DNA of 5,944 bases. It comes from a virus. The notes beneath the pieces were generated by a model. The model saw only the letters and a list, made by a program, of their open reading frames with translations, did no database searches and was not told the origin of the DNA. The DNA lies in the IMG/VR virus record IMGVR_UViG_3300045988_000211, positions 1 to 5,944 of that record; one strand, 5' to 3'. Shown here one piece after another: positions 1 through 5,944 of the stretch (within the stretch, counting starts at the first letter, position 1; every line of letters starts with the position of its first letter). Position numbers and translations under genes: made by a program.

Positions 1-111
1 CGTAAAGCAATGAAAGGCGCAAAAGACCGCCGTATGTTTAACGTAACCGCACGAAAAACCAAAAGCATAAACCTCAGCCAGAAGCCTATGCGCGGTGGCA
101 TCCGGCTGTAA
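1..111 (+). CDS. 3' fragment of the small basic J/ORF8-like DNA-binding protein (duplicate of 5826..5936 caused by the wrap)
   Basis: Frame 1 reads RKAMKGAKDRRMFNVTARKTKSINLSQKPMRGGIRL, then TAA at 109..111. This matches the C-terminus of the 5814..5936 ORF. Confidence 0.85.
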   Translation, partial: RKAMKGAKDRRMFNVTARKTKSINLSQKPMRGGIRL

Positions 112-119
112 AAAAAAAG
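1..119. repeat. Terminal redundancy (copy 1), identical to 5826..5944; circular-contig wrap
   Basis: Base-by-base comparison shows cgtaaagcaatgaaaggcgc...ggctgtaaaaaaaaag identical at both ends, with an offset of 5,825 nt. Confidence 0.95.
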
Positions 120-132
120 GAGAGTAAATATC

Positions 133-372
133 ATGAAGCATGAATATTTTGGCCTGTGGGACAGTGTAGCAAAGTGCTACGCATGGGTAGGCGAGAGCAA
201 GAACAATGCAACCTTTGCACGTATGTGCAACGTAATGGCAAAGGATGAAAAAACGTTTGTAGGACAGGCACCCGAAGACTATACCGGCTTCAAACTGGCA
301 GTGTTTGACGATGAAACCGGTGAGTTTACCAACGACAAGGAAAAAGTATGGGAGAGTAAGCCGCATGAATAA
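133..372 (+). CDS. Small conserved microvirus non-structural protein, VP5-like (79 aa)
   Basis: ATG at 133 follows GGAGAG (119..124). The gene sits immediately upstream of VP3, where gokushoviruses carry VP5. From memory, the motif PEDYxxFxLxxFDDETGE resembles a small gokushovirus protein family; this is unverified. Its stop overlaps the VP3 start by 8 nt. Confidence 0.6.
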   Translation: MKHEYFGLWDSVAKCYAWVGESKNNATFARMCNVMAKDEKTFVGQAPEDYTGFKLAVFDDETGEFTNDKEKVWESKPHE

Positions 373-757
373 ACGATACGAAGAAGGGCGAAAGCCCTTC
401 TTTTCTGAACCAGGCGAAAAATTCCGAAAACAATACGTCTGGACGAAAGACGAAAAAGGACAAGAAGTGCTGCAAGAAACTGCGCCAATCGACATCCAAC
501 AGGAAATTGAAAGCTATGCGGATGAATGTGATATCAAAAACATCGTCCGAAAAGCAAGCTTTGACCCGCAGTTTCTGAAAAGCCTGTCAGAAGGAGCACT
601 AAACGGAACAGAAGTGGACATCACCGAATTTCCGCAGAACATTCACGAGTATCATCGCATGATCGCAACAGCACAGGCAAACGCCATGAAACTAGAAGAG
701 CTGCAAAAATTAGCAGCAGAAAAGCCTAAAACAGAACCTAAAGAAAAGGAGGAATAA
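365..757 (+). CDS. Internal scaffolding protein VP3 (130 aa from ATG 365; the ORF is open from 305)
   Basis: GGGAGAG at 350..356 lies 8 nt upstream of ATG 365, whereas ATG 305 has no SD. The sequence IESYADECDIKNIVRKASFDPQFLKSL...DITEFPQNIHEYHRMI resembles the gokushovirus VP3 scaffold. The gene is directly upstream of the capsid gene. Confidence 0.75.
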   Translation: MNKRYEEGRKPFFSEPGEKFRKQYVWTKDEKGQEVLQETAPIDIQQEIESYADECDIKNIVRKASFDPQFLKSLSEGALNGTEVDITEFPQNIHEYHRMIATAQANAMKLEELQKLAAEKPKTEPKEKEE

Positions 758-759
758 AA

Positions 760-2433
760 GTGAATCGAAACAATGAACAGCACTTTAACCAGATTCCGGA
801 AATGCGAGCAAGTCGAACACGATTCAATCGTGACCAGACGATTCTCACAACGTTTGATTCTGGCAAGCTGATTCCGTTCTATGTTGACGAGGTATTGCCA
901 GGCGATACCTTCAACGTGAATACGTCAGCTATCATCCGCATGACCACGCCGAAATACCCGGTGATGGACGATGCATTTATTGACTTCTACTACTTCTATT
1001 GTCCAAACCGCATCTTATGGGACCATTTCAAACAGTTCATGGGAGAAGTAGAGGAAACACCCTGGATGCCAACAAAAACATATAAAGTACCCGAAATCAA
1101 AATACAGGGTAATGAAAAAACGAGCATCCCATATGAAGGCTCAATCTTAGACTACATGGGAGTACCAACAAAAGTAAAAGGAACCTTCAAAGTCAACGCA
1201 CTGCCTGTCAGAGCATATGTAAAAATCTGGAACGAATTTTTTAGAGACGAAAATGTTGGGAATGCAGCAGTGATTAAAACAGATGATGCAGACGTAGCAT
1301 ACGAAGATTCAATCACAGATAACATCAACTTAGTGCTGAACATAGCATATAAAGGTGGAAGATGTTTACCTGTAAACAAGTTCCATGACTACTTCACCAG
1401 CTGCCTACCCTATAGTCAACGTGGGCCAGAAATTACACTACCCATGACAGGTAACGCAATGGTGACAGGATACACAGACGAAAACTACACAGAAAAAACG
1501 AGTGTCTACGCAAGCAGCTTTTTCGATGGAAGCACAAACTCGGGCAACGTCAAAAACAAACTGTATGCAATCGCACAAAACGGAAATAACGGTGCAGCAT
1601 ACTTAAACATTGGAAGCGGAAATGGCACAGCACACACCACAGCATACCTTGGCGCAGACTTGAGCACAGTAACAGCTGCAACCATCAACGACTTGCGAAA
1701 AGCCGTAGCAGTGCAGCAGTACTACGAAGCACTTGCAAGAGGCGGCAGCCGTTACCGTGAACAGGTACAAGCACTGTGGAACGTGGTTATCAGTGATAAA
1801 ACCGTACAGGTGCCGGAATACCTGGGCGGTGGCAGATATCACGTCAATATCAACCAAATCGTGCAGACCAGCGGACAGCAGACAAACGAAGACACACCTA
1901 TCGGTGAAACTGGAGCAATGTCGGTAACGCCAATCAACGAAAGCAGCTTCACGAAATCTTTCGAGGAGCACGGTTTTATAATCGGTGTATGTTGTGTACG
2001 ACACAATCACAGTTATCAGCAAGGTTTGGAACGTTTTTGGAGCAGAATCGACAGACTTGACTACTATGTGCCACAGTTCGCAAACCTTGGCGAACAACCT
2101 GTCAAAAAGAAAGAGATCATGCTCACCGGCGCTGCAACGGATGAGGAGACATTCGGCTACCAGGAAGCATGGGCAGACTATCGCATGAAGCCTAACCGGG
2201 TATCCGGCAAAATGCGAAGCAATGCAACAGGCACGTTAGACTTCTGGCACTACGCTGACAACTACAAAGAAGTACCCACGCTGTCGCAAGAATGGATGGA
2301 AGAAAGCAAAAACGAAATTGCGCGCACGCTCATCGTGGAAGATGAGCCACAGTTCTTCGGTGCTATCCGTGTAGAAAACAAAACCACAAGACGGATGCCA
2401 CTGTACAGCGTACCGGGCTTGTACAAACTATAA
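760..2433 (+). CDS. Major capsid protein VP1 (F-like), 557 aa
   Basis: A GTG start at 760 lies 7 nt after a perfect AGGAGG (747..752). The N-terminal signature FNxIPEMxxSRxRFxRxxxxxTTFDxGxLIPFYVDEVLPGDTF is typical of Microviridae major capsid proteins. It is the largest ORF in the genome. Confidence 0.93.
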   Translation: MNRNNEQHFNQIPEMRASRTRFNRDQTILTTFDSGKLIPFYVDEVLPGDTFNVNTSAIIRMTTPKYPVMDDAFIDFYYFYCPNRILWDHFKQFMGEVEETPWMPTKTYKVPEIKIQGNEKTSIPYEGSILDYMGVPTKVKGTFKVNALPVRAYVKIWNEFFRDENVGNAAVIKTDDADVAYEDSITDNINLVLNIAYKGGRCLPVNKFHDYFTSCLPYSQRGPEITLPMTGNAMVTGYTDENYTEKTSVYASSFFDGSTNSGNVKNKLYAIAQNGNNGAAYLNIGSGNGTAHTTAYLGADLSTVTAATINDLRKAVAVQQYYEALARGGSRYREQVQALWNVVISDKTVQVPEYLGGGRYHVNINQIVQTSGQQTNEDTPIGETGAMSVTPINESSFTKSFEEHGFIIGVCCVRHNHSYQQGLERFWSRIDRLDYYVPQFANLGEQPVKKKEIMLTGAATDEETFGYQEAWADYRMKPNRVSGKMRSNATGTLDFWHYADNYKEVPTLSQEWMEESKNEIARTLIVEDEPQFFGAIRVENKTTRRMPLYSVPGLYKL

Positions 2434-2443
2434 GAAAGGAGAA

Positions 2444-2469
2444 AGCCCGGAGAAATCCGGGCTATTTTT
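2444..2469 (+). terminator. Intrinsic-terminator-like hairpin between VP1 and VP2
   Basis: The stem AGCCCGG (2444..2450) pairs with CCGGGCT (2457..2463) around the loop AGAAAT. It is followed by A and then T5 (2465..2469), and lies 11 nt after the VP1 stop. Confidence 0.55.
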
Positions 2470-2471
2470 AA

Positions 2472-3341
2472 ATGGGAGCATTATCAGGATTCTTAACAGC
2501 ACTAAACGTAGCGGGAAACGTGGCAAACACAATCGGAACTGTTGCGGGAGCAGCTAAAAACGTAGCCGGAGCGTTTGGCGGATGGGGACAGACAGGCAAT
2601 AGCCAAAGCAGCGGCGGCAGCACAAGCCAAGGCGGCGGGCACTCCGAAAGCGGAAGTCAAGCCGGCACAAACGTTCAACAGGTCAACGACTGGCTAAAAC
2701 AGGCATACGCGTACCAAGGGCAAGAAGCAGCCATGCAAGGTAAATACAACAGTCAAAGCATGCTTAAACAAATGGGTTACAACACCTTACAAGCAATCAT
2801 GCAAGGCGTATACAACCACATTGAAAACAGCGTAGCAATGAACTACAACAGCGCAGAAGCACTAGCTAACCGTGAATGGCAAGAACACATGTCAAGCACA
2901 GCATACCAACGAGCTGTTGAGGACATGAAAAAAGCGGGGCTTAACCCTATCTTAGCATTCTCAAACGGCGGCGCAAGCACACCGGGAGGAAGTGCGGGAA
3001 CAATCAGCGGAGCAAGCATGGGACTTGCAAGCAGCAGCGCACTAGGAGTAAGCAGAAGCGGAGGGTTTGTACCAAATGCATACTCAAGCTCAAGCTGGAG
3101 TAAAAGTGACTGGTACAACGCTGCACAAAGTTGGCAGCAGATGCTTAGTTCAACGCACATGACACCCTACGGGCTACAAAAAGCGCTTACAGAAGTCGGA
3201 AACGACACAAGCAAAGCAATCGAAGACGCAACATCGAAGACAGGAAAAGAGAAAGCTGCAGCACAAAACAGAAGCATAAAGCCACAAGACAAAAACGGAG
3301 CATACGGAGAAAAACGAAAGCCGGGTGATTACTTAAAGTGA
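2472..3341 (+). CDS. Minor capsid / DNA pilot protein VP2 (H-like), 289 aa
   Basis: The protein has a Gly/Ala/Ser-rich N-terminus. The conserved block TAYQRAVEDMKKAGLNPILAF is typical of gokushovirus VP2. It lies between VP1 and VP4, and its stop TGA overlaps the VP4 GTG start (GTGA). Confidence 0.85.
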   Translation: MGALSGFLTALNVAGNVANTIGTVAGAAKNVAGAFGGWGQTGNSQSSGGSTSQGGGHSESGSQAGTNVQQVNDWLKQAYAYQGQEAAMQGKYNSQSMLKQMGYNTLQAIMQGVYNHIENSVAMNYNSAEALANREWQEHMSSTAYQRAVEDMKKAGLNPILAFSNGGASTPGGSAGTISGASMGLASSSALGVSRSGGFVPNAYSSSSWSKSDWYNAAQSWQQMLSSTHMTPYGLQKALTEVGNDTSKAIEDATSKTGKEKAAAQNRSIKPQDKNGAYGEKRKPGDYLK

Positions 3342-4357
3342 GTTGCTACAAGCCATTAATAAGGCTGTACGACCCGAACAATAAGGACATAAGCGGGCGG
3401 GTGTATTCACTCGCCCGCTTTTCTGAAATAAGCGGGAAACAGCTAAAATATGAAGATTTGATGTACAGAAAAGATGTCATGTTGATACCATGCGGTCAAT
3501 GCATCGGATGTAGAATCAGACAAAGGGAAGACTGGGCAACACGAATAGAATTAGAAGCGCGAGACTATCCAAGAGAAGAAGTTTGGTTTATCACATTAAC
3601 TTATGACGATGACCATGTGCCGGGCATGATAGTAAACACAGGCGAAATCATGCGAAAAGTACAGTACGTCTGGAAACCGGGAGAGAAGCGCCCTGAAAGC
3701 GTCCAAACTTTGCTATATACTGACATTCAAAAGTTCTTAAAACGCCTCAGAAAGGCTTATAGGGGCAAATTACGCTATTTCGTAGCGGGAGAATACGGAG
3801 AACAGACGGCAAGACCACACTTCCATATGATTCTATATGGATGGAGACCAACAGACCTAGAGCACCTATACAAGATACAGCACAACGGATATTTCACAAG
3901 TAAATGGTTAGAAGACCTATGGGGCATGGGTCAAATACAGATAGCACAAGCAGTACCGGAAACATATAGATATGTTGCGGGATACGTTACAAAAAAAATG
4001 TACGAAATTGACGGTCAAAAGGCAAACGTATACTACGAACTAGGACAACAAAAACCTTTTGCATGTATGAGCCTAAAACCAGGCTTAGGAGATAACTATT
4101 ACAAAAAGCACAAAGCAGAAATCTGGAAACAAGGGTATATCCAATGCACAAACGGCAAACGCGCACAAATACCACGTTATTATGAAAAAATGATGGAAGC
4201 GGAAAACCCACAAAGGTTATGGAGAATTAAGCAGAACAGACAAGCAGCAGCCATAGAAGAAAACCGACTAAAGTACGAAAATGCAGACTTTGCAGAACAG
4301 TGCAAAACGAAAGAGAGAGTGATAAAGAAGCAGATGAAGAAGAGAGGGACACTTTAA
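3338..4357 (+). CDS. Replication initiator VP4 (A-like HUH rolling-circle endonuclease), 339 aa
   Basis: The N-terminus is M-SCYKPL. The protein carries a Cys cluster (CGQCIGC), motif 1 (FITLTYDD), the HUH motif (RPHFHMILYG), and a double-Tyr catalytic motif (YVAGYVTKK, compare phiX174 gpA YVAKYV). The GTG start is translationally coupled to the VP2 stop. Confidence 0.93.
   Translation: MSCYKPLIRLYDPNNKDISGRVYSLARFSEISGKQLKYEDLMYRKDVMLIPCGQCIGCRIRQREDWATRIELEARDYPREEVWFITLTYDDDHVPGMIVNTGEIMRKVQYVWKPGEKRPESVQTLLYTDIQKFLKRLRKAYRGKLRYFVAGEYGEQTARPHFHMILYGWRPTDLEHLYKIQHNGYFTSKWLEDLWGMGQIQIAQAVPETYRYVAGYVTKKMYEIDGQKANVYYELGQQKPFACMSLKPGLGDNYYKKHKAEIWKQGYIQCTNGKRAQIPRYYEKMMEAENPQRLWRIKQNRQAAAIEENRLKYENADFAEQCKTKERVIKKQMKKRGTL
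3391..3420 (+). promoter_or_regulatory. 13-bp-stem hairpin inside the 5' part of the Rep coding region
   Basis: AAGCGGGCGGGTG (3391..3403) pairs with CACTCGCCCGCTT (3408..3420), with 12 Watson-Crick pairs plus one G-T and a TATT loop. Two further T follow, giving TTTT at 3419..3422. Confidence 0.5.
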
Positions 4358-4375
4358 CAGTGTCACGGTGTCACC

Positions 4376-4409
4376 TAGCCCAGTACCTATCAAGTAAGGT
4401 ACTGGGCTA
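4376..4409 (+). terminator. Perfect 13-bp-stem hairpin 19 nt downstream of the Rep stop (terminator-like or origin-related)
   Basis: TAGCCCAGTACCT (4376..4388) pairs with AGGTACTGGGCTA (4397..4409) around the 8-nt loop ATCAAGTA. The downstream sequence TTGTCATTT is only moderately T-rich. Confidence 0.4.
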
Positions 4410-4432
4410 TTGTCATTTAAAGACTCCATGTA

Positions 4433-4450
4433 TCAGTCTATTCAGTCTAT
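4433..4450. repeat. Perfect tandem duplication of the 9-mer TCAGTCTAT
   Basis: 4433..4441 equals 4442..4450. Confidence 0.9.
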
Positions 4451-4468
4451 CAAATAGCTATCTCTTAT

Positions 4469-4512
4469 CGCGCGTGCGCACGCGCGCGAAGCGCGCACGC
4501 GCGCACGCGCGG
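4469..4512. repeat. Alternating CG / palindromic GC-rich tract
   Basis: A perfect 18-nt palindrome CGCGCGTGCGCACGCGCG lies at 4469..4486. GCGCACGC recurs at 4476, 4493 and 4501. The tract is almost pure alternating purine-pyrimidine, in an otherwise A-rich genome. Confidence 0.9.
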
Positions 4513-4525
4513 CTCTTCAGCGCTA

Positions 4526-4555
4526 TTGTTCGCAAGCTCACAAGCGCTGTATAAT
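4526..4555 (+). promoter_or_regulatory. Candidate sigma70-type promoter (TTGTTC-N18-TATAAT)
   Basis: A perfect -10 TATAAT at 4550..4555 is immediately preceded by TG. The -35 TTGTTC at 4526..4531 is weak (3/6) and the spacer is 18 nt. Confidence 0.3.
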
Positions 4556-4567
4556 ATATAACTTGTT

Positions 4568-4583
4568 GTAGTAGTAGTAGTAG
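4568..4583. repeat. (GTA)5 / (TAG)5 trinucleotide microsatellite
   Basis: The sequence is gtagtagtagtagtag, preceded by ttgttg. Confidence 0.9.
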
Positions 4584-4649
4584 AGACTGTGGAAAAGTTG
4601 ATAAGTGCTAAAATTTAACGTTAAGACGTAAATAAAAGGCAAAAAACAA

Positions 4650-4762
4650 TGTTGAAAGATTTGTTGAAAACTTGTTGAAATGTTGAAAGTTCGTCAAAAT
4701 GACGAAAACCTTTGTGCAACATTTTGTTGAAAACCTGTTGAAAGTGTTGAAAGTGTTGAAAA
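4650..4762 (+). repeat. Iteron array: eight direct TGTTGAAA copies in two clusters of four
   Basis: Copies start at 4650, 4662, 4673 and 4681, then at 4725, 4736, 4745 and 4754. The last three are head-to-tail 9-mers (TGTTGAAAG, TGTTGAAAG, TGTTGAAAA). All copies share one orientation. Confidence 0.9.
4690..4706. promoter_or_regulatory. 7-3-7 perfect inverted repeat TTCGTCA-AAA-TGACGAA at the centre of the iteron array (operator-like or hairpin)
   Basis: TTCGTCA (4690..4696) is the reverse complement of TGACGAA (4700..4706). Confidence 0.6.
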
Positions 4763-4895
4763 CGCGCACAGCGCTAAAAAGGAATGGATTCAGCCGAATT
4801 CCGCTGCGCTCCATACGGCAAGGCGCTAAAGCGCCGTTCAAAACAAAGGAGCAAAACTGAGTTACTGATATATCAATTAAAGTTTCAAAAAAGGC

Positions 4896-4924
4896 TTGAC
4901 TTTTTATCAAAAATATGATAGAAT
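4896..4924 (+). promoter_or_regulatory. Sigma70-type promoter with extended -10 (TTGACT-N17-TGaTAGAAT)
   Basis: The -35 TTGACT is at 4896..4901, the spacer is 17 nt, TG is at 4916..4917, and the -10 TAGAAT is at 4919..4924. An A-rich tract lies upstream. The SD and ATG of the next ORF follow within ~30 nt. Confidence 0.65.
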
Positions 4925-4951
4925 ATAATCACAGAAAGGAAGGTGCTCAAA

Positions 4952-5134
4952 ATGATGCACAAATACGAGTTAAGAAAATGGAACAATGACGACACGATGA
5001 CCACGGTATTAAAAATCAATGATGCACCCAAAAACGCAAAAAAGAGGGCAAGAGAATACGCAAACGAACACAAGGGAATCTATTCCTTGTGCAGAGTCGA
5101 AGAAGTAAAAATATACTCCACTGAAAAAGAATAA
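4952..5134 (+). CDS. Hypothetical 60-aa protein (accessory, no recognisable family)
   Basis: ATG 4952 lies 8 nt after AGGAAGG (4937..4943), whereas the ORF-track start at 4943 is a GTG inside the SD. The ORF is bracketed by a promoter upstream and an intrinsic terminator downstream. No hydrophobic segment is present. Confidence 0.6.
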   Translation: MMHKYELRKWNNDDTMTTVLKINDAPKNAKKRAREYANEHKGIYSLCRVEEVKIYSTEKE

Positions 5135-5139
5135 AAAGC

Positions 5140-5173
5140 AAACTCCCGGTTGACAGCCGGGAGTTTTTGTTTT
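5140..5173 (+). terminator. Rho-independent terminator
   Basis: The 10-bp stem AAACTCCCGG (5140..5149) pairs with CCGGGAGTTT (5157..5166) around the 7-nt loop TTGACAG. A T-rich tail TTGTTTT follows through 5173. It starts 6 nt after the stop of the 60-aa ORF. Confidence 0.75.
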
Positions 5174-5178
5174 ATAAT
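5150..5178 (+). promoter_or_regulatory. Perfect consensus sigma70 promoter TTGACA-N17-TATAAT nested in the terminator
   Basis: TTGACA at 5150..5155 lies in the terminator loop. The spacer 5156..5172 is exactly 17 nt, and TATAAT is at 5173..5178. The SD AAAGGGGGG and ATG 5200 of the peptidase gene lie just downstream. Confidence 0.65.
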
Positions 5179-5199
5179 AAAGACAAAGGGGGGCTAAAC

Positions 5200-5592
5200 A
5201 TGATTAAAAGCTATATCATGGACACAGATGGAAACGTAAAGCTGGCAAGACACTTCAAAGTAAAAGAATTTGCTTGCAAAGACGGCAGCCAAGTAGTATT
5301 CATAGATGACTACCTATACACCATTCTAGATATCTTACGACATAAGCTAGGAAAGCCGGTGATCATCACCAGCGGATACAGAACACCAGAGTGGAACAAA
5401 AAATGCAACGGAGCAAAATACAGCTACCACATGCGCGGTATGGCAGCAGATATCCGAGTCAATGGCATGAGCGCAAAAGAGCTTGCCAACAAACTGAATG
5501 AAATCGTCCCGGATGAATGCGGCATTATCGTATACAACAATTGGGTGCACTTTGATGTGCGACCCGGAAAAAAATACAGAAAGGGGATGTAA
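5200..5592 (+). CDS. Peptidase M15 family (M15A / Peptidase_M15_3-like) zinc cell-wall hydrolase, 130 aa
   Basis: The motif series FxVKEFACKDG ... ITSGYRTPEWNxxxxGAxxSYHMRGMAADI ... WVHFDVR matches the H/D/H zinc-ligand pattern of D-Ala-D-Ala carboxypeptidase-fold phage endolysins. ATG 5200 lies 5 nt after AAAGGGGGG (5186..5194). The ORF-track start at 5167 is a TTG inside the terminator tail. Confidence 0.85.
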   Translation: MIKSYIMDTDGNVKLARHFKVKEFACKDGSQVVFIDDYLYTILDILRHKLGKPVIITSGYRTPEWNKKCNGAKYSYHMRGMAADIRVNGMSAKELANKLNEIVPDECGIIVYNNWVHFDVRPGKKYRKGM

Positions 5593-5593
5593 A

Positions 5594-5716
5594 ATGGCAC
5601 TGATTTCAATTAAGGACGTCAAGCAAGCAATCCGCATTATGATGCAGATTCTCGAAAAGCTTGACGAAATCTATCATGCGCTGCACGATAGCATCAACGA
5701 AGACAAAAAGGAGTAA
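5594..5716 (+). CDS. Hypothetical 40-aa protein (predicted helical, acidic C-terminus)
   Basis: ATG 5594 lies 7 nt after AAGGGGA and 1 nt after the peptidase stop. The upstream part of the ORF-track frame (5498..) overlaps the peptidase gene and has no SD. Confidence 0.45.
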   Translation: MALISIKDVKQAIRIMMQILEKLDEIYHALHDSINEDKKE

Positions 5717-5722
5717 ACCGTA

Positions 5723-5830
5723 ATGCCCAAAACATGGAATGCACGAGACCAGACCGAAGAAGCAAATTGGAACCATGGCCGAAACAAAAAAAAGAAAAGA
5801 AAGGTACACAACAATGGCACGACATCGTAA
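5723..5830 (+). CDS. Possible 35-aa ORF (MPKTWNARDQTEEANWNHGRNKKKKRKVHNNGTTS)
   Basis: ATG 5723 lies 9 nt after the best SD in the region (AAGGAG 5708..5713). All three + frames are open here, so coding status is uncertain. Confidence 0.3.
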   Translation: MPKTWNARDQTEEANWNHGRNKKKKRKVHNNGTTS

Positions 5831-5936
5831 AGCAATGAAAGGCGCAAAAGACCGCCGTATGTTTAACGTAACCGCACGAAAAACCAAAAGCATAAACCTC
5901 AGCCAGAAGCCTATGCGCGGTGGCATCCGGCTGTAA
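5814..5936 (+). CDS. Small basic DNA-binding / packaging protein (phiX174 J-like, gokushovirus ORF8-like), 40 aa
   Basis: The product is MARHRKAMKGAKDRRMFNVTARKTKSINLSQKPMRGGIRL, with 13 of 40 residues K/R. The C-terminal PMRGGIRL is a recurrent ending of gokushovirus ORF8-type proteins (from memory). GAAAGG lies 9 nt upstream of ATG 5814. The frame is open back to ATG 5739, but that start has no SD. Confidence 0.75.
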   Translation: MARHRKAMKGAKDRRMFNVTARKTKSINLSQKPMRGGIRL

Positions 5937-5944
5937 AAAAAAAG
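5826..5944. repeat. Terminal redundancy (copy 2), identical to 1..119
   Basis: Same as copy 1. The overlap runs exactly to the last base of the window. Confidence 0.95.

Follow-up and report, generated by a model that had tools for sequence, protein, structure and literature searches.

We analysed a 5,944-nt stretch of viral DNA (IMG/VR record IMGVR_UViG_3300045988_000211, positions 1 to 5,944; the whole of it is called the window below), centering on a GC-dense, alternating tract in its non-coding part, the CG tract, for which the original prediction, made from the sequence alone, had proposed the role of a complementary-strand origin. We read it, tentatively, as a selected but accessory hairpin that may help prime the complementary strand. 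The exact redundancy of the first and last 119 nt (1-119 = 5826-5944) indicates a circular genome of 5825 nt written with an overlap. The window is the genome of a gokushovirus of the gut, that is, a small single-stranded DNA (ssDNA) phage of the Microviridae, and its nearest GenBank genomes, at about 85% identity, are gokushoviruses of the human and the pig gut. All its genes lie on the + strand; they were identified by Pfam scan (Table 1), the analysis being otherwise aimed at the non-coding DNA. The CG tract sits in a 585-nt non-coding region that extends from the gene for the replication protein VP4 (Rep) to a strong promoter-like site (4896-4924). When the window was scanned in full against Rfam with a permissive threshold, three sub-threshold chance matches resulted, none of which falls at the tract.

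The perfect 18-nt palindrome of the 5′ arm (CGCGCGTGCGCACGCGCG, 4469-4486) is the longest of the genome, the next independent one measuring 10 nt. The full arms (4469-4488 and 4492-4511), with 3 nt between them, are 90% complementary, while 4469-4479 and 4493-4503 are 100% complementary. The arms also contain the two longest alternating purine-pyrimidine runs of the genome (4491-4511, 21 nt, on the 3′ side and 20 nt on the 5′ side), as against 14 nt for the next run and a mean longest run of 12.3 nt in shuffled genomes. Folded as ssDNA, the tract yields an 18-bp hairpin built as 11 + 2 + 5 bp, with two 1x1 A.C mismatches, at -27.7 kcal/mol. The same value is obtained on enforcing the pairing of 4469-4479 with 4501-4511, which thus represents the minimum-energy fold, whereas pairing it with 4493-4503 gives -22.5 kcal/mol and pairing the palindrome with itself -21.5 kcal/mol; these registers are mutually exclusive, and the competing ones cost only 5-6 kcal/mol above the minimum. 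In a ranking of all 60-nt windows of the + strand, 4466-4525 comes first at -27.7 kcal/mol, against a genome-wide mean of -4.9 (standard deviation 3.3) and a runner-up of -17.2 kcal/mol. Hence, the observations of the original prediction were confirmed: the palindrome, the repeat units at 4493 and 4501 and a related element at 4763-4775 lie where it had placed them, and the alternative GC hairpins, the most structure-prone segment of the genome and the Z-DNA-prone sequence properties that it had described are all there. However, dinucleotide-preserving shuffles of the tract fold nearly as well as the tract itself (z = -1.74), which indicates that its composition and two-arm layout, rather than a fine-tuned pairing, are exceptional. 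The second most stable + strand hairpin (3391-3423, -17.2 kcal/mol, followed by TTTTCT), which has a weak sub-threshold Rfam match, is located about 50 nt into the VP4 frame, just past the VP2 stop; by its sequence it looks like an intrinsic terminator or attenuator, which would restrict Rep expression.

Table 1. Coordinates of the genes and non-coding features of the window
Feature	Position	Strand	Basis and remarks
Scaffold protein	305-757	+	Pfam scan: Chlamy_scaf
VP1	760-2433	+	Pfam scan: Phage_F capsid family
VP4 (Rep)	3338-4357	+	Pfam scan: REP_ORF2-G2P rolling-circle Rep family
Hairpin 1	4376-4409	+	Inverted repeat, terminator-like match; 13-bp stem, 8-nt loop ATCAAGTA; right after the VP4 stop
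Tandem TCAGTCTAT, two copies	4433-4450	+	Between hairpin 1 and the CG tract; kept in the alignment of class A (the window's class)
CG tract	4469-4511	+	43-nt imperfect inverted repeat, 37/43 G+C
5′ arm of the tract	4469-4488	+	20 nt, strictly alternating pyrimidine-purine; holds the 18-nt palindrome
Hairpin tip GCGAAGC	4486-4492	+	GCGNAGC "mini-hairpin" motif
3′ arm of the tract	4492-4511	+	Two overlapping GCGCACGCGCG units (4493-4503 and 4501-4511), giving alternative registers
M4 stem-loop	4518-4549	+	Fold; stem CAGCGCT/AGCGCTG, loop ATTGTTCGCAAGCTCACA; between the tract and the AT-rich element
AT-rich element TATAATATATAA	4550-4561		Sequence; putative duplex-unwinding element, which the tract abuts directly in most relatives
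TTG TTG and five TAG repeats	4563-4583	+	TAGs at 4569-4583; read 3′-GAT-5′, the consensus DnaA-trio
Spacer AGAC	4584-4587		4 nt; variable, G/C-leaning in relatives
Tandem DnaA-box-like sites TGTGGAAAA and AGTTGATAA	4588-4604	-	Box-consensus match
About ten TGTTGAAA(A/G) repeats	4650-4762	-	Reverse complement TTTTCAACA, one mismatch from the relaxed DnaA box
CGCGCACAGCGCT, CGCGCAC-type element	4763-4775	+	Directly after the TGTTGAAA array; right boundary of the invertible segment
M15 peptidase	5167-5592	+	Pfam scan

A mechanically called open reading frame (ORF, 4300-4554) runs across the tract; since it is interrupted in relatives by indels of 1, 5 and 14 nt and by differences of whole modules, we regard the tract as non-coding. 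It might instead function in the sense RNA, as a 3′ stem-loop that shields the VP1-VP2-VP4 transcript from 3′ exonucleases or blocks read-through into the origin. The tract does lie downstream of the last structural/Rep gene, after the terminator-like hairpin 1, and its sense RNA folds at -38.5 kcal/mol; moreover, intergenic hairpins of phiX174 act as mRNA stabilisers. On the other side, the bases that follow it (GCTCTTCAGC) include no T/U run, a terminator scan reports hairpin 1 and passes the tract over, A.C mismatches suit a helix of sense RNA least of all, and in two relatives (L085 and L116) the tract is found upstream of VP4, after the neighbouring module. Accordingly, a role in the sense RNA appears improbable to us. 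An intrinsic (rho-independent) terminator, in particular, was dropped as a reading because of the missing T-run.

Relatives were collected through the similarity of VP4 (80 loci), through a conserved motif neighbouring the tract (120 contigs) and as ten GenBank genomes. They furnish 85 distinct variants of the tract, in several classes differing in the loop, the length of the arms (10-30 nt) and the outer stem. In the window's class (26 distinct sequences) 97.2% of the cells are paired and three pairs display double compensatory changes; none of 500 shuffles attains this, and slid controls give one double-compensated pair. Across the classes, 80 distinct two-armed variants were aligned symmetrically about the loop, with the caveat that the centre was picked so as to maximise pairing: here Watson-Crick pairs are present in 70-98% of the variants at 18 of the 20 positions next to the loop, and at none of the 20 was the observed pairing matched by any of 200 shuffles. 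Several pair types occur at positions 10, 11, 14, 15, 18, 19 and 20 from the loop; for instance, position 14 is T-A in 40 variants, C-G in 23 and G-C in 5, and position 20 is C-G in 47, T-A in 13 and A-T in 12. Further out, stems that are unlike in sequence are still complementary (TATAG/CTATA, AATGCA/TGCATT and ACAGGCAT/ATGCCTGT). Covariation of the arms, which the original prediction had put forward as a check, is thus seen both in the window's class and in the wider alignment, and, as judged from these comparisons, a hairpin or cruciform-capable inverted repeat is under selection.

The substitutions within the tract are almost exclusively transitions (14 against 1 transversion, where the non-coding columns of the flanks have 32 against 25; p = 0.007), a bias that fits the upkeep of a hairpin and that of the purine-pyrimidine alternation alike. 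The tract resembles Z-DNA-forming (CG)n/(CA)n sequences in its strictly alternating, CG-rich runs and in the preservation of this alternation by the transitions; it differs from them in that its arms covary as a hairpin and that an AA step puts the two runs out of phase. As a T in one arm is matched by an A at the mirror position of the other, neither Z-DNA alone nor a repeated protein-binding word suffices as an account. This matching, together with the multiple pair types, led us to reject both a repeated GCGCAC protein site and Z-DNA only as the primary property of the tract.

The presence or absence of the tract was counted in 71 full genomes that have the neighbouring motif, 59 of them with the direct layout and 12 with the inverted one. 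An alternating CG/CA tract is found in 51 of the former and 5 of the latter, never more than once per genome and only in this region, and its presence does not follow the VP4 tree. With respect to the genes the tract keeps one polarity throughout, also beside an inverted module, and in essentially all 85 variants the gene strand is the one with the CA-type arms; of three apparent exceptions, two (L089 and L091) are partial loci entered in the opposite orientation. This constancy fits a function that is read on one strand. The loop, by contrast, is unconserved: among genomes with VP4 proteins 85-96% identical it reads GAAG, GAAAC, GATAG, GTAG, GTAGA, GTAAT, GAATA or GTCTA. A nick site of the HUH Rep, i.e., a plus-strand origin, was for this reason discarded as a reading of the tract.

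The most widely conserved non-coding DNA of the window is not the tract but the adjoining region 4550-4762 (50 GenBank records), the oriC-like pattern of which is kept in more than 120 viral contigs and 50 GenBank microviruses. The search rule for the basal unwinding system of bacterial origins calls for a DnaA box, a spacer of <=16 bp, >=3 DnaA-trios (3′-NAN-5′, preferably 3′-GAT-5′) and an AT-rich flank, and the spacer averages 4 bp (PMC8287927); the trio consensus is likewise given as 3′-GAT-5′ (PMC10201434, PMC6669920). The segment 4550-4604 offers a box, a 4-nt spacer, five TAGs and TATAATATATAA. The first of its boxes, TGTGGAAAA (reverse complement TTTTCCACA, 4588-4596, - strand), fits TTWTNCACA, and the second, AGTTGATAA (reverse complement TTATCAACT), has two mismatches to TTATCCACA. 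At homologous positions of the downstream array, relatives swap TGTTGAAAA and TGTGGAAAA, and one (L083) carries a perfect TGTGGATAA. Over a diverse set of 79 genomes, the three TAGs closest to the box show almost full conservation and the first box nearly as much; the spacer varies. Since the count of strict DnaA boxes in the window (1 against 0.81 expected) is not significant by itself, the case for an oriC-like module rests on the arrangement and on the enrichment of TTTTCAACA (3 matches against 0.11 expected).

An element-for-element likeness emerges from comparison with the oriC of Bacillus subtilis, where the string is 5′-TATAAAAAA TAGTAGAAGTAATAGTAG GGCC TGTGGATT TGTGGATAA-3′ (supplement of PMC8287927); in the window it is 5′-TATAATATATAAC TTGTTG TAGTAGTAGTAGTAG AGAC TGTGGAAA AGTTGATAA-3′. 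The two agree in how the elements are ordered and oriented to one another, in having a 4-nt spacer and in the second box being offset by 12 nt. Thus, at the level of sequence 4550-4604 closely resembles the basal unwinding system of B. subtilis, which we find more surprising than the CG tract. Unlike a bacterial oriC, it belongs to a 5.8-kb ssDNA phage with an HUH Rep of its own, its further boxes are for the most part TTTTCAACA, one mismatch away from the relaxed consensus, and it occurs in both orientations relative to the genes. The CG tract is not a defined element of such a system: it lies beyond the AT-rich end and parts from the module on inversion. The defined GC-rich element of oriC is the 4-5-bp spacer between the box and the trios (PMC8235120), the counterpart of which in the window is AGAC, not the CG tract.

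A scan of 185,579 species genomes for the module motif gave 16 matches and neither a host nor a homologous bacterial oriC; 15 of these are chance matches in unrelated coding sequence, and the remaining one is a whole microvirus contig binned in a Bacteroides metagenome-assembled genome. A scan of viral contigs for GCGCACGCGCGCACGCGC was uninformative, as it mixed these microviruses with unrelated larger contigs. In the searchable literature we found no paper linking the Microviridae or gokushoviruses with DnaA boxes or DnaA-trios, and DnaA-dependent initiation is undescribed there for any microvirus. The motif AACTTG (4560-4565) resembles part of the phiX174 origin CAACTTGATA; we do not rely on this likeness because the motif lies within the module, which relatives may have in the opposite orientation.

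Relative to the genes, the module as a whole is inverted in 12 of the 71 full genomes (about 15-19% of the carriers overall) and, among close relatives by VP4 for which the downstream sequence suffices, in 6 of 71; the relatives concerned are L085, L089-L091, L099, L112, L116, L124, L135, L140, L143, L147, L149, L159 and L171. In genomes of the L140 type the breakpoints of the inversion fall precisely at the end of the CG tract and at the CGCGCAC element, the counterpart of window 4763-4775. Hence, the CGCGCAC-type elements, which had been described as bracketing the repeat array, indeed do so and further coincide with both boundaries of the segment inverted in some relatives. Layout types and orientations are scattered over the VP4 tree, from which it follows that the non-coding modules recombine freely. 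A module that works in either orientation fits a function in duplex DNA.

This brings up what we consider the main rival account, namely that the tract serves at the duplex level, in the replicative form, as a GC-rich inverted repeat beside the AT-rich unwinding element of an oriC-like, DnaA-dependent origin. It could do so as a GC clamp that focuses or limits supercoil-driven melting, or by absorbing supercoils through a cruciform or a B-to-Z transition. In 51 of 59 genomes with the direct layout the end of the tract precedes AACTTG by 6-97 nt, and in about half of them by 6-11 nt; the neighbour matches the bacterial basal unwinding system in each element; the near-exclusive transitions preserve the alternation; and GC-rich DNA is reported to enhance the supercoil-induced melting of adjacent AT-rich DNA (PMC8235120). 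However, relatives with the inverted layout have the tract at the box end instead of the AT-rich end and keep it intact there through about 10-15% divergence of VP4, and in the window itself a 32-nt hairpin, M4, separates it from the AT-rich element. Moreover, a GC clamp or Z-DNA needs no arm-to-arm covariation, and a B-to-Z transition or cruciform would probably compete with the melting of the origin. On balance, we deem a duplex-level role possible but unlikely. Its closest precedents are ori-lambda, with iterons, an AT-rich region and a 28-bp palindrome, and oriV of plasmid RK2, with iterons, an AT-rich and a GC-rich region, the layout of which is as here. In most relatives the phage region is like these origins in comprising boxes, repeats of an ssDNA-binding kind, an AT-rich region and a GC-rich inverted repeat; it is unlike them in that the adjacency is lost in the inverted relatives and is broken by M4 in the window.

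The boundaries of the inversion also allow for the tract having no dedicated function, being instead a self-perpetuating palindromic or slippage-prone hotspot of recombination and inversion bordering the exchangeable origin modules. The invertible segment is indeed bounded by the tract and the CGCGCAC element, the non-coding layouts are scattered as noted, and variants in length or with indels are common (L038 and L120; the range of arm lengths). Yet 37 of 43 G+C are kept in a genome with about 45% G+C in 200-nt windows and 50% A at 4-fold sites, and a GC-rich tract in such an A-rich genome should decay without selection, which argues against a functionless hotspot; the compensatory changes and the near-exclusive transitions likewise argue for constraint. 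We therefore hold this account to be quite improbable. Finally, GC-rich palindromes are error-prone, and a few contigs (L038, L120) have internal deletions, but the tract is present, with lineage-specific variants, in independent GenBank genomes from different laboratories and hosts (KX513868, KT264791 and the MG945xxx series) as well as in many IMG/VR contigs. The fear of an assembly artefact that accompanied the original prediction is thereby laid to rest, and the chance that assembly or sequencing error produced the tract is vanishingly small.

With these points in place, our preferred reading is that the tract is an auxiliary hairpin akin to a single-strand origin, for priming the complementary strand, to which we assign a probability of roughly 0.33. 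Under this proposal, the tract on the packaged (+) strand would snap into a hairpin of 18-20 bp capped by the GCGAAGC mini-hairpin, the duplex of which would resist coating by the single-strand-binding protein (SSB) when the genome enters the cell. The hairpin could then be an auxiliary landmark at which the host priming machinery, through recognition by primase, PriA or RNA polymerase, starts complementary-strand synthesis, and so may aid the conversion of ssDNA to the replicative form. It would be an accessory module, interchangeable with other hairpins, and not an essential core element. A review reports mini-hairpin motifs for the complementary-strand origins of G4, St-1 and alpha3, together with a poor binding of SSB to such motifs (PMC13037366). 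It has been conjectured in the field that intergenic hairpins showing compensatory changes are the complementary-strand origins of microviruses, every one of which is expected to need such a hairpin (PMC9865509). The proposal would accommodate the genome-unique, extremely stable, covarying hairpin, with its fixed polarity and modular distribution.

Several observations weigh against it. The tract is missing in 8 of the 59 genomes with the direct layout and in 7 of the 12 with the inverted one, all of which carry the same module. In the 29 tract-less genomes of the full non-redundant set the best hairpins reach -13.5 to -23 kcal/mol and are often hairpin 1; there was no equally stable substitute among them. 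Only 27 of 79 relatives retain the mini-hairpin motif at the centre, always on the gene strand (0 of 79 have it on the other). Two seemingly complete genomes have a damaged tract, one (L038, about 3141-3163) with a 14-nt deletion of the 5′ arm and the other (L120, at the contig start) without the central loop; they represent natural variants that are viable or, alternatively, misassemblies of the palindrome. Apart from the tip motif, the tract has no sequence homology to the G4, St-1 and alpha3 origins, and beyond being a hairpin it has no likeness to the primosome assembly site of phiX174. The original prediction had itself named absence from close relatives as a finding that would tell against it, and since a sizeable minority of them lack the tract, it is in part contradicted by its own standard. 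The tract is thus an accessory module; stability, covariation and the mini-hairpin tip favour a complementary-strand origin, while the absences, the sporadic tip and the A.C mismatches do not, so that the interpretation is partly supported and unproven. As for the alternative suggestion of a packaging or nucleation signal, we know of no precedent in the Microviridae, where packaging is coupled to Rep-driven synthesis. As a separate observation, in two tract-less genomes (L149 and L201) the most stable hairpin (-20 to -22 kcal/mol) is formed by a tandem repeat of the GCTGCATGCTGAAG type, some 2 kb away from the module and unrelated to the CG tract.

To the same side of the ledger belongs a strand asymmetry. 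Both arms have CA steps on the gene strand, rather than CA in one and TG in the other, and the non-Watson-Crick positions are consequently nearly all A.C on the packaged strand and the milder G.T on its complement, in a ratio of about 40 to 1. These mismatches recur at fixed positions, namely position 6 from the loop in 81% of the variants and position 9 in 64%, and in 81 of 85 variants the fold of the complementary strand is the more stable one, the mean difference being 5.2 kcal/mol. Such an excess of A.C is still unlike the outcome of selection for maximal + strand stability. It could mean that a structure of - sense is the one selected, be it a primer RNA, an antisense transcript or the - strand arm of a cruciform, in which A.C would become G.U or G.T wobbles and the helix continuous; indeed, the antisense RNA of the tract forms an unbroken 20-bp helix at -45.4 kcal/mol, as against the -38.5 kcal/mol of the sense RNA. 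However, the - strand is not normally single-stranded in rolling-circle replication, and the only promoter-like site on it is weak (4950-4922, 9/12 matches) and about 450 nt away. Hairpin 1, moreover, has the same asymmetry, with 28 G.T pairs in its - strand fold against 2 in its + strand fold.

Mutational bias of the strongly A-rich + strand might suffice to yield the A.C excess. At 4-fold sites the + strand has 50% A, 19% G, 13% T and 17% C, giving A/(A+G) of 0.72 and T/(T+C) of 0.44; the excess can be explained if G-to-A is favoured about 3.4-fold over C-to-T, whereupon A.C should exceed G.T by approximately the square of that ratio. Given the bias shared with hairpin 1 and this composition, the stronger - strand fold was downgraded as a proof of - strand function. 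The A.C/G.T asymmetry is treated here as unexplained and not decisive, and we think it improbable that a - sense structure is what is maintained.

Hairpin 1, preceded by a conserved GGTGTCA leader (4366-4409 together), has at least five different covarying stems in relatives, while its loop is kept (ATCAAGTA, or AGACAAGGA in distant genomes) even at 37% VP4 identity. Its polarity is the same in all layouts inspected, and it is the top hairpin in many tract-less genomes. On these sequence features it is a better candidate than the tract for a site recognised by Rep, as a putative origin or nick site, and it may also be a terminator. The reverse complement of its loop contains ACTTGATA, as does the phiX174 origin CAACTTGATA; this likeness is not relied on because it is on the wrong strand. 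By analogy with other Rep-encoding ssDNA viruses, the two TCAGTCTAT copies could be Rep-binding repeats beside a stem-loop. M4 occurs solely in the subclass to which the window belongs, where it is inserted between the tract and the AT-rich element; its stem covaries (A-T to G-C; GCGC/GCGC to GCAC/GTGC) and its 18-nt loop is nearly invariant. Past the array, the promoter-like site at 4896-4924 is composed of TTGACT, a 17-nt spacing and TAGAAT, with an extended TG (10/12 consensus positions), and is followed by an ORF of 63 aa (4943-5134) without a Pfam match and a clean terminator-like hairpin (AAACTCCCGG...CCGGGAGTTTTTGTTTT, 5139-5170). By its signals, 4896-5170 is predicted to be a separate small transcription unit directly after the origin region.

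The hairpin and the module may also be parts of one device. We entertain, as a rather unlikely possibility, a composite origin in which a Rep-encoding ssDNA phage has captured an oriC-type unwinding system of bacteria, with the CG hairpin as one working part. In such an arrangement the host DnaA (along with DnaD in Firmicutes) would open the replicative form or assemble on the single-stranded trios of the entering genome, and the adjacent stable hairpin would provide a fixed junction of duplex and single strand for the loading of helicase and primase. Inversion between the tract and the CGCGCAC element would then switch the strand on which loading takes place. If the module does recruit DnaA, a rolling-circle ssDNA phage would also be using the chromosomal initiator of its host, and the boxes would offer a sequence-based clue to host range. 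If the tract is a priming signal, it would be a compact and portable element of single-strand initiation. Gokushoviruses are among the most abundant ssDNA viruses of the gut, and in either case about 400 nt of anonymous non-coding DNA become a list of parts: a Rep-proximal stem-loop, the CG hairpin, M4 and a module resembling DnaA boxes and DnaA-trios.

In the searchable literature we found the replication origin of gokushoviruses, whether for the plus or the minus strand, undescribed; the tract is compared here with the origins of other replicons. Taken alone, it is an ordinary kind of object, an origin-region hairpin of an ssDNA replicon. Like the complementary-strand origins of other Microviridae (the n′/PriA-dependent one of phiX174 and the primase-dependent ones of G4, St-1 and alpha3), it is a stable non-coding hairpin of the packaged strand. 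The tip GCGAAGC in the window belongs to the GCGNAGC/GCGNNAGC class, as do those of the G4 (GCGAAAGC) and St-1/alpha3 (GCGTTAGC) origins (PMC13037366). Unlike the known microvirus origins, it is nearly pure alternating CG/CA, has two conserved A.C mismatches and is absent in some relatives. The presence of several structured modules in the region, on the other hand, resembles the multi-hairpin complementary-strand origins of G4-type phages.

A further parallel is furnished by the single-strand origins of plasmids (ssoA, ssoU), which are imperfect palindromes specific in strand and orientation, modular, exchangeable and individually dispensable; as cassettes of rolling-circle plasmids, their presence likewise does not track phylogeny. 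These origins span about 150-200 nt and possess the RSB and CS-6 (TAGCGT/A in the loop) motifs, whereas the CG tract has 43 nt and, in the window, the loop GAAG, and so departs from the ssoA type in both size and motif; TAGCG(C) appears only in the classes with ATAG and TAG loops, where it may be a coincidence. What the tract shares with the plasmid single-strand origins is a mosaic distribution combined with a fixed orientation.

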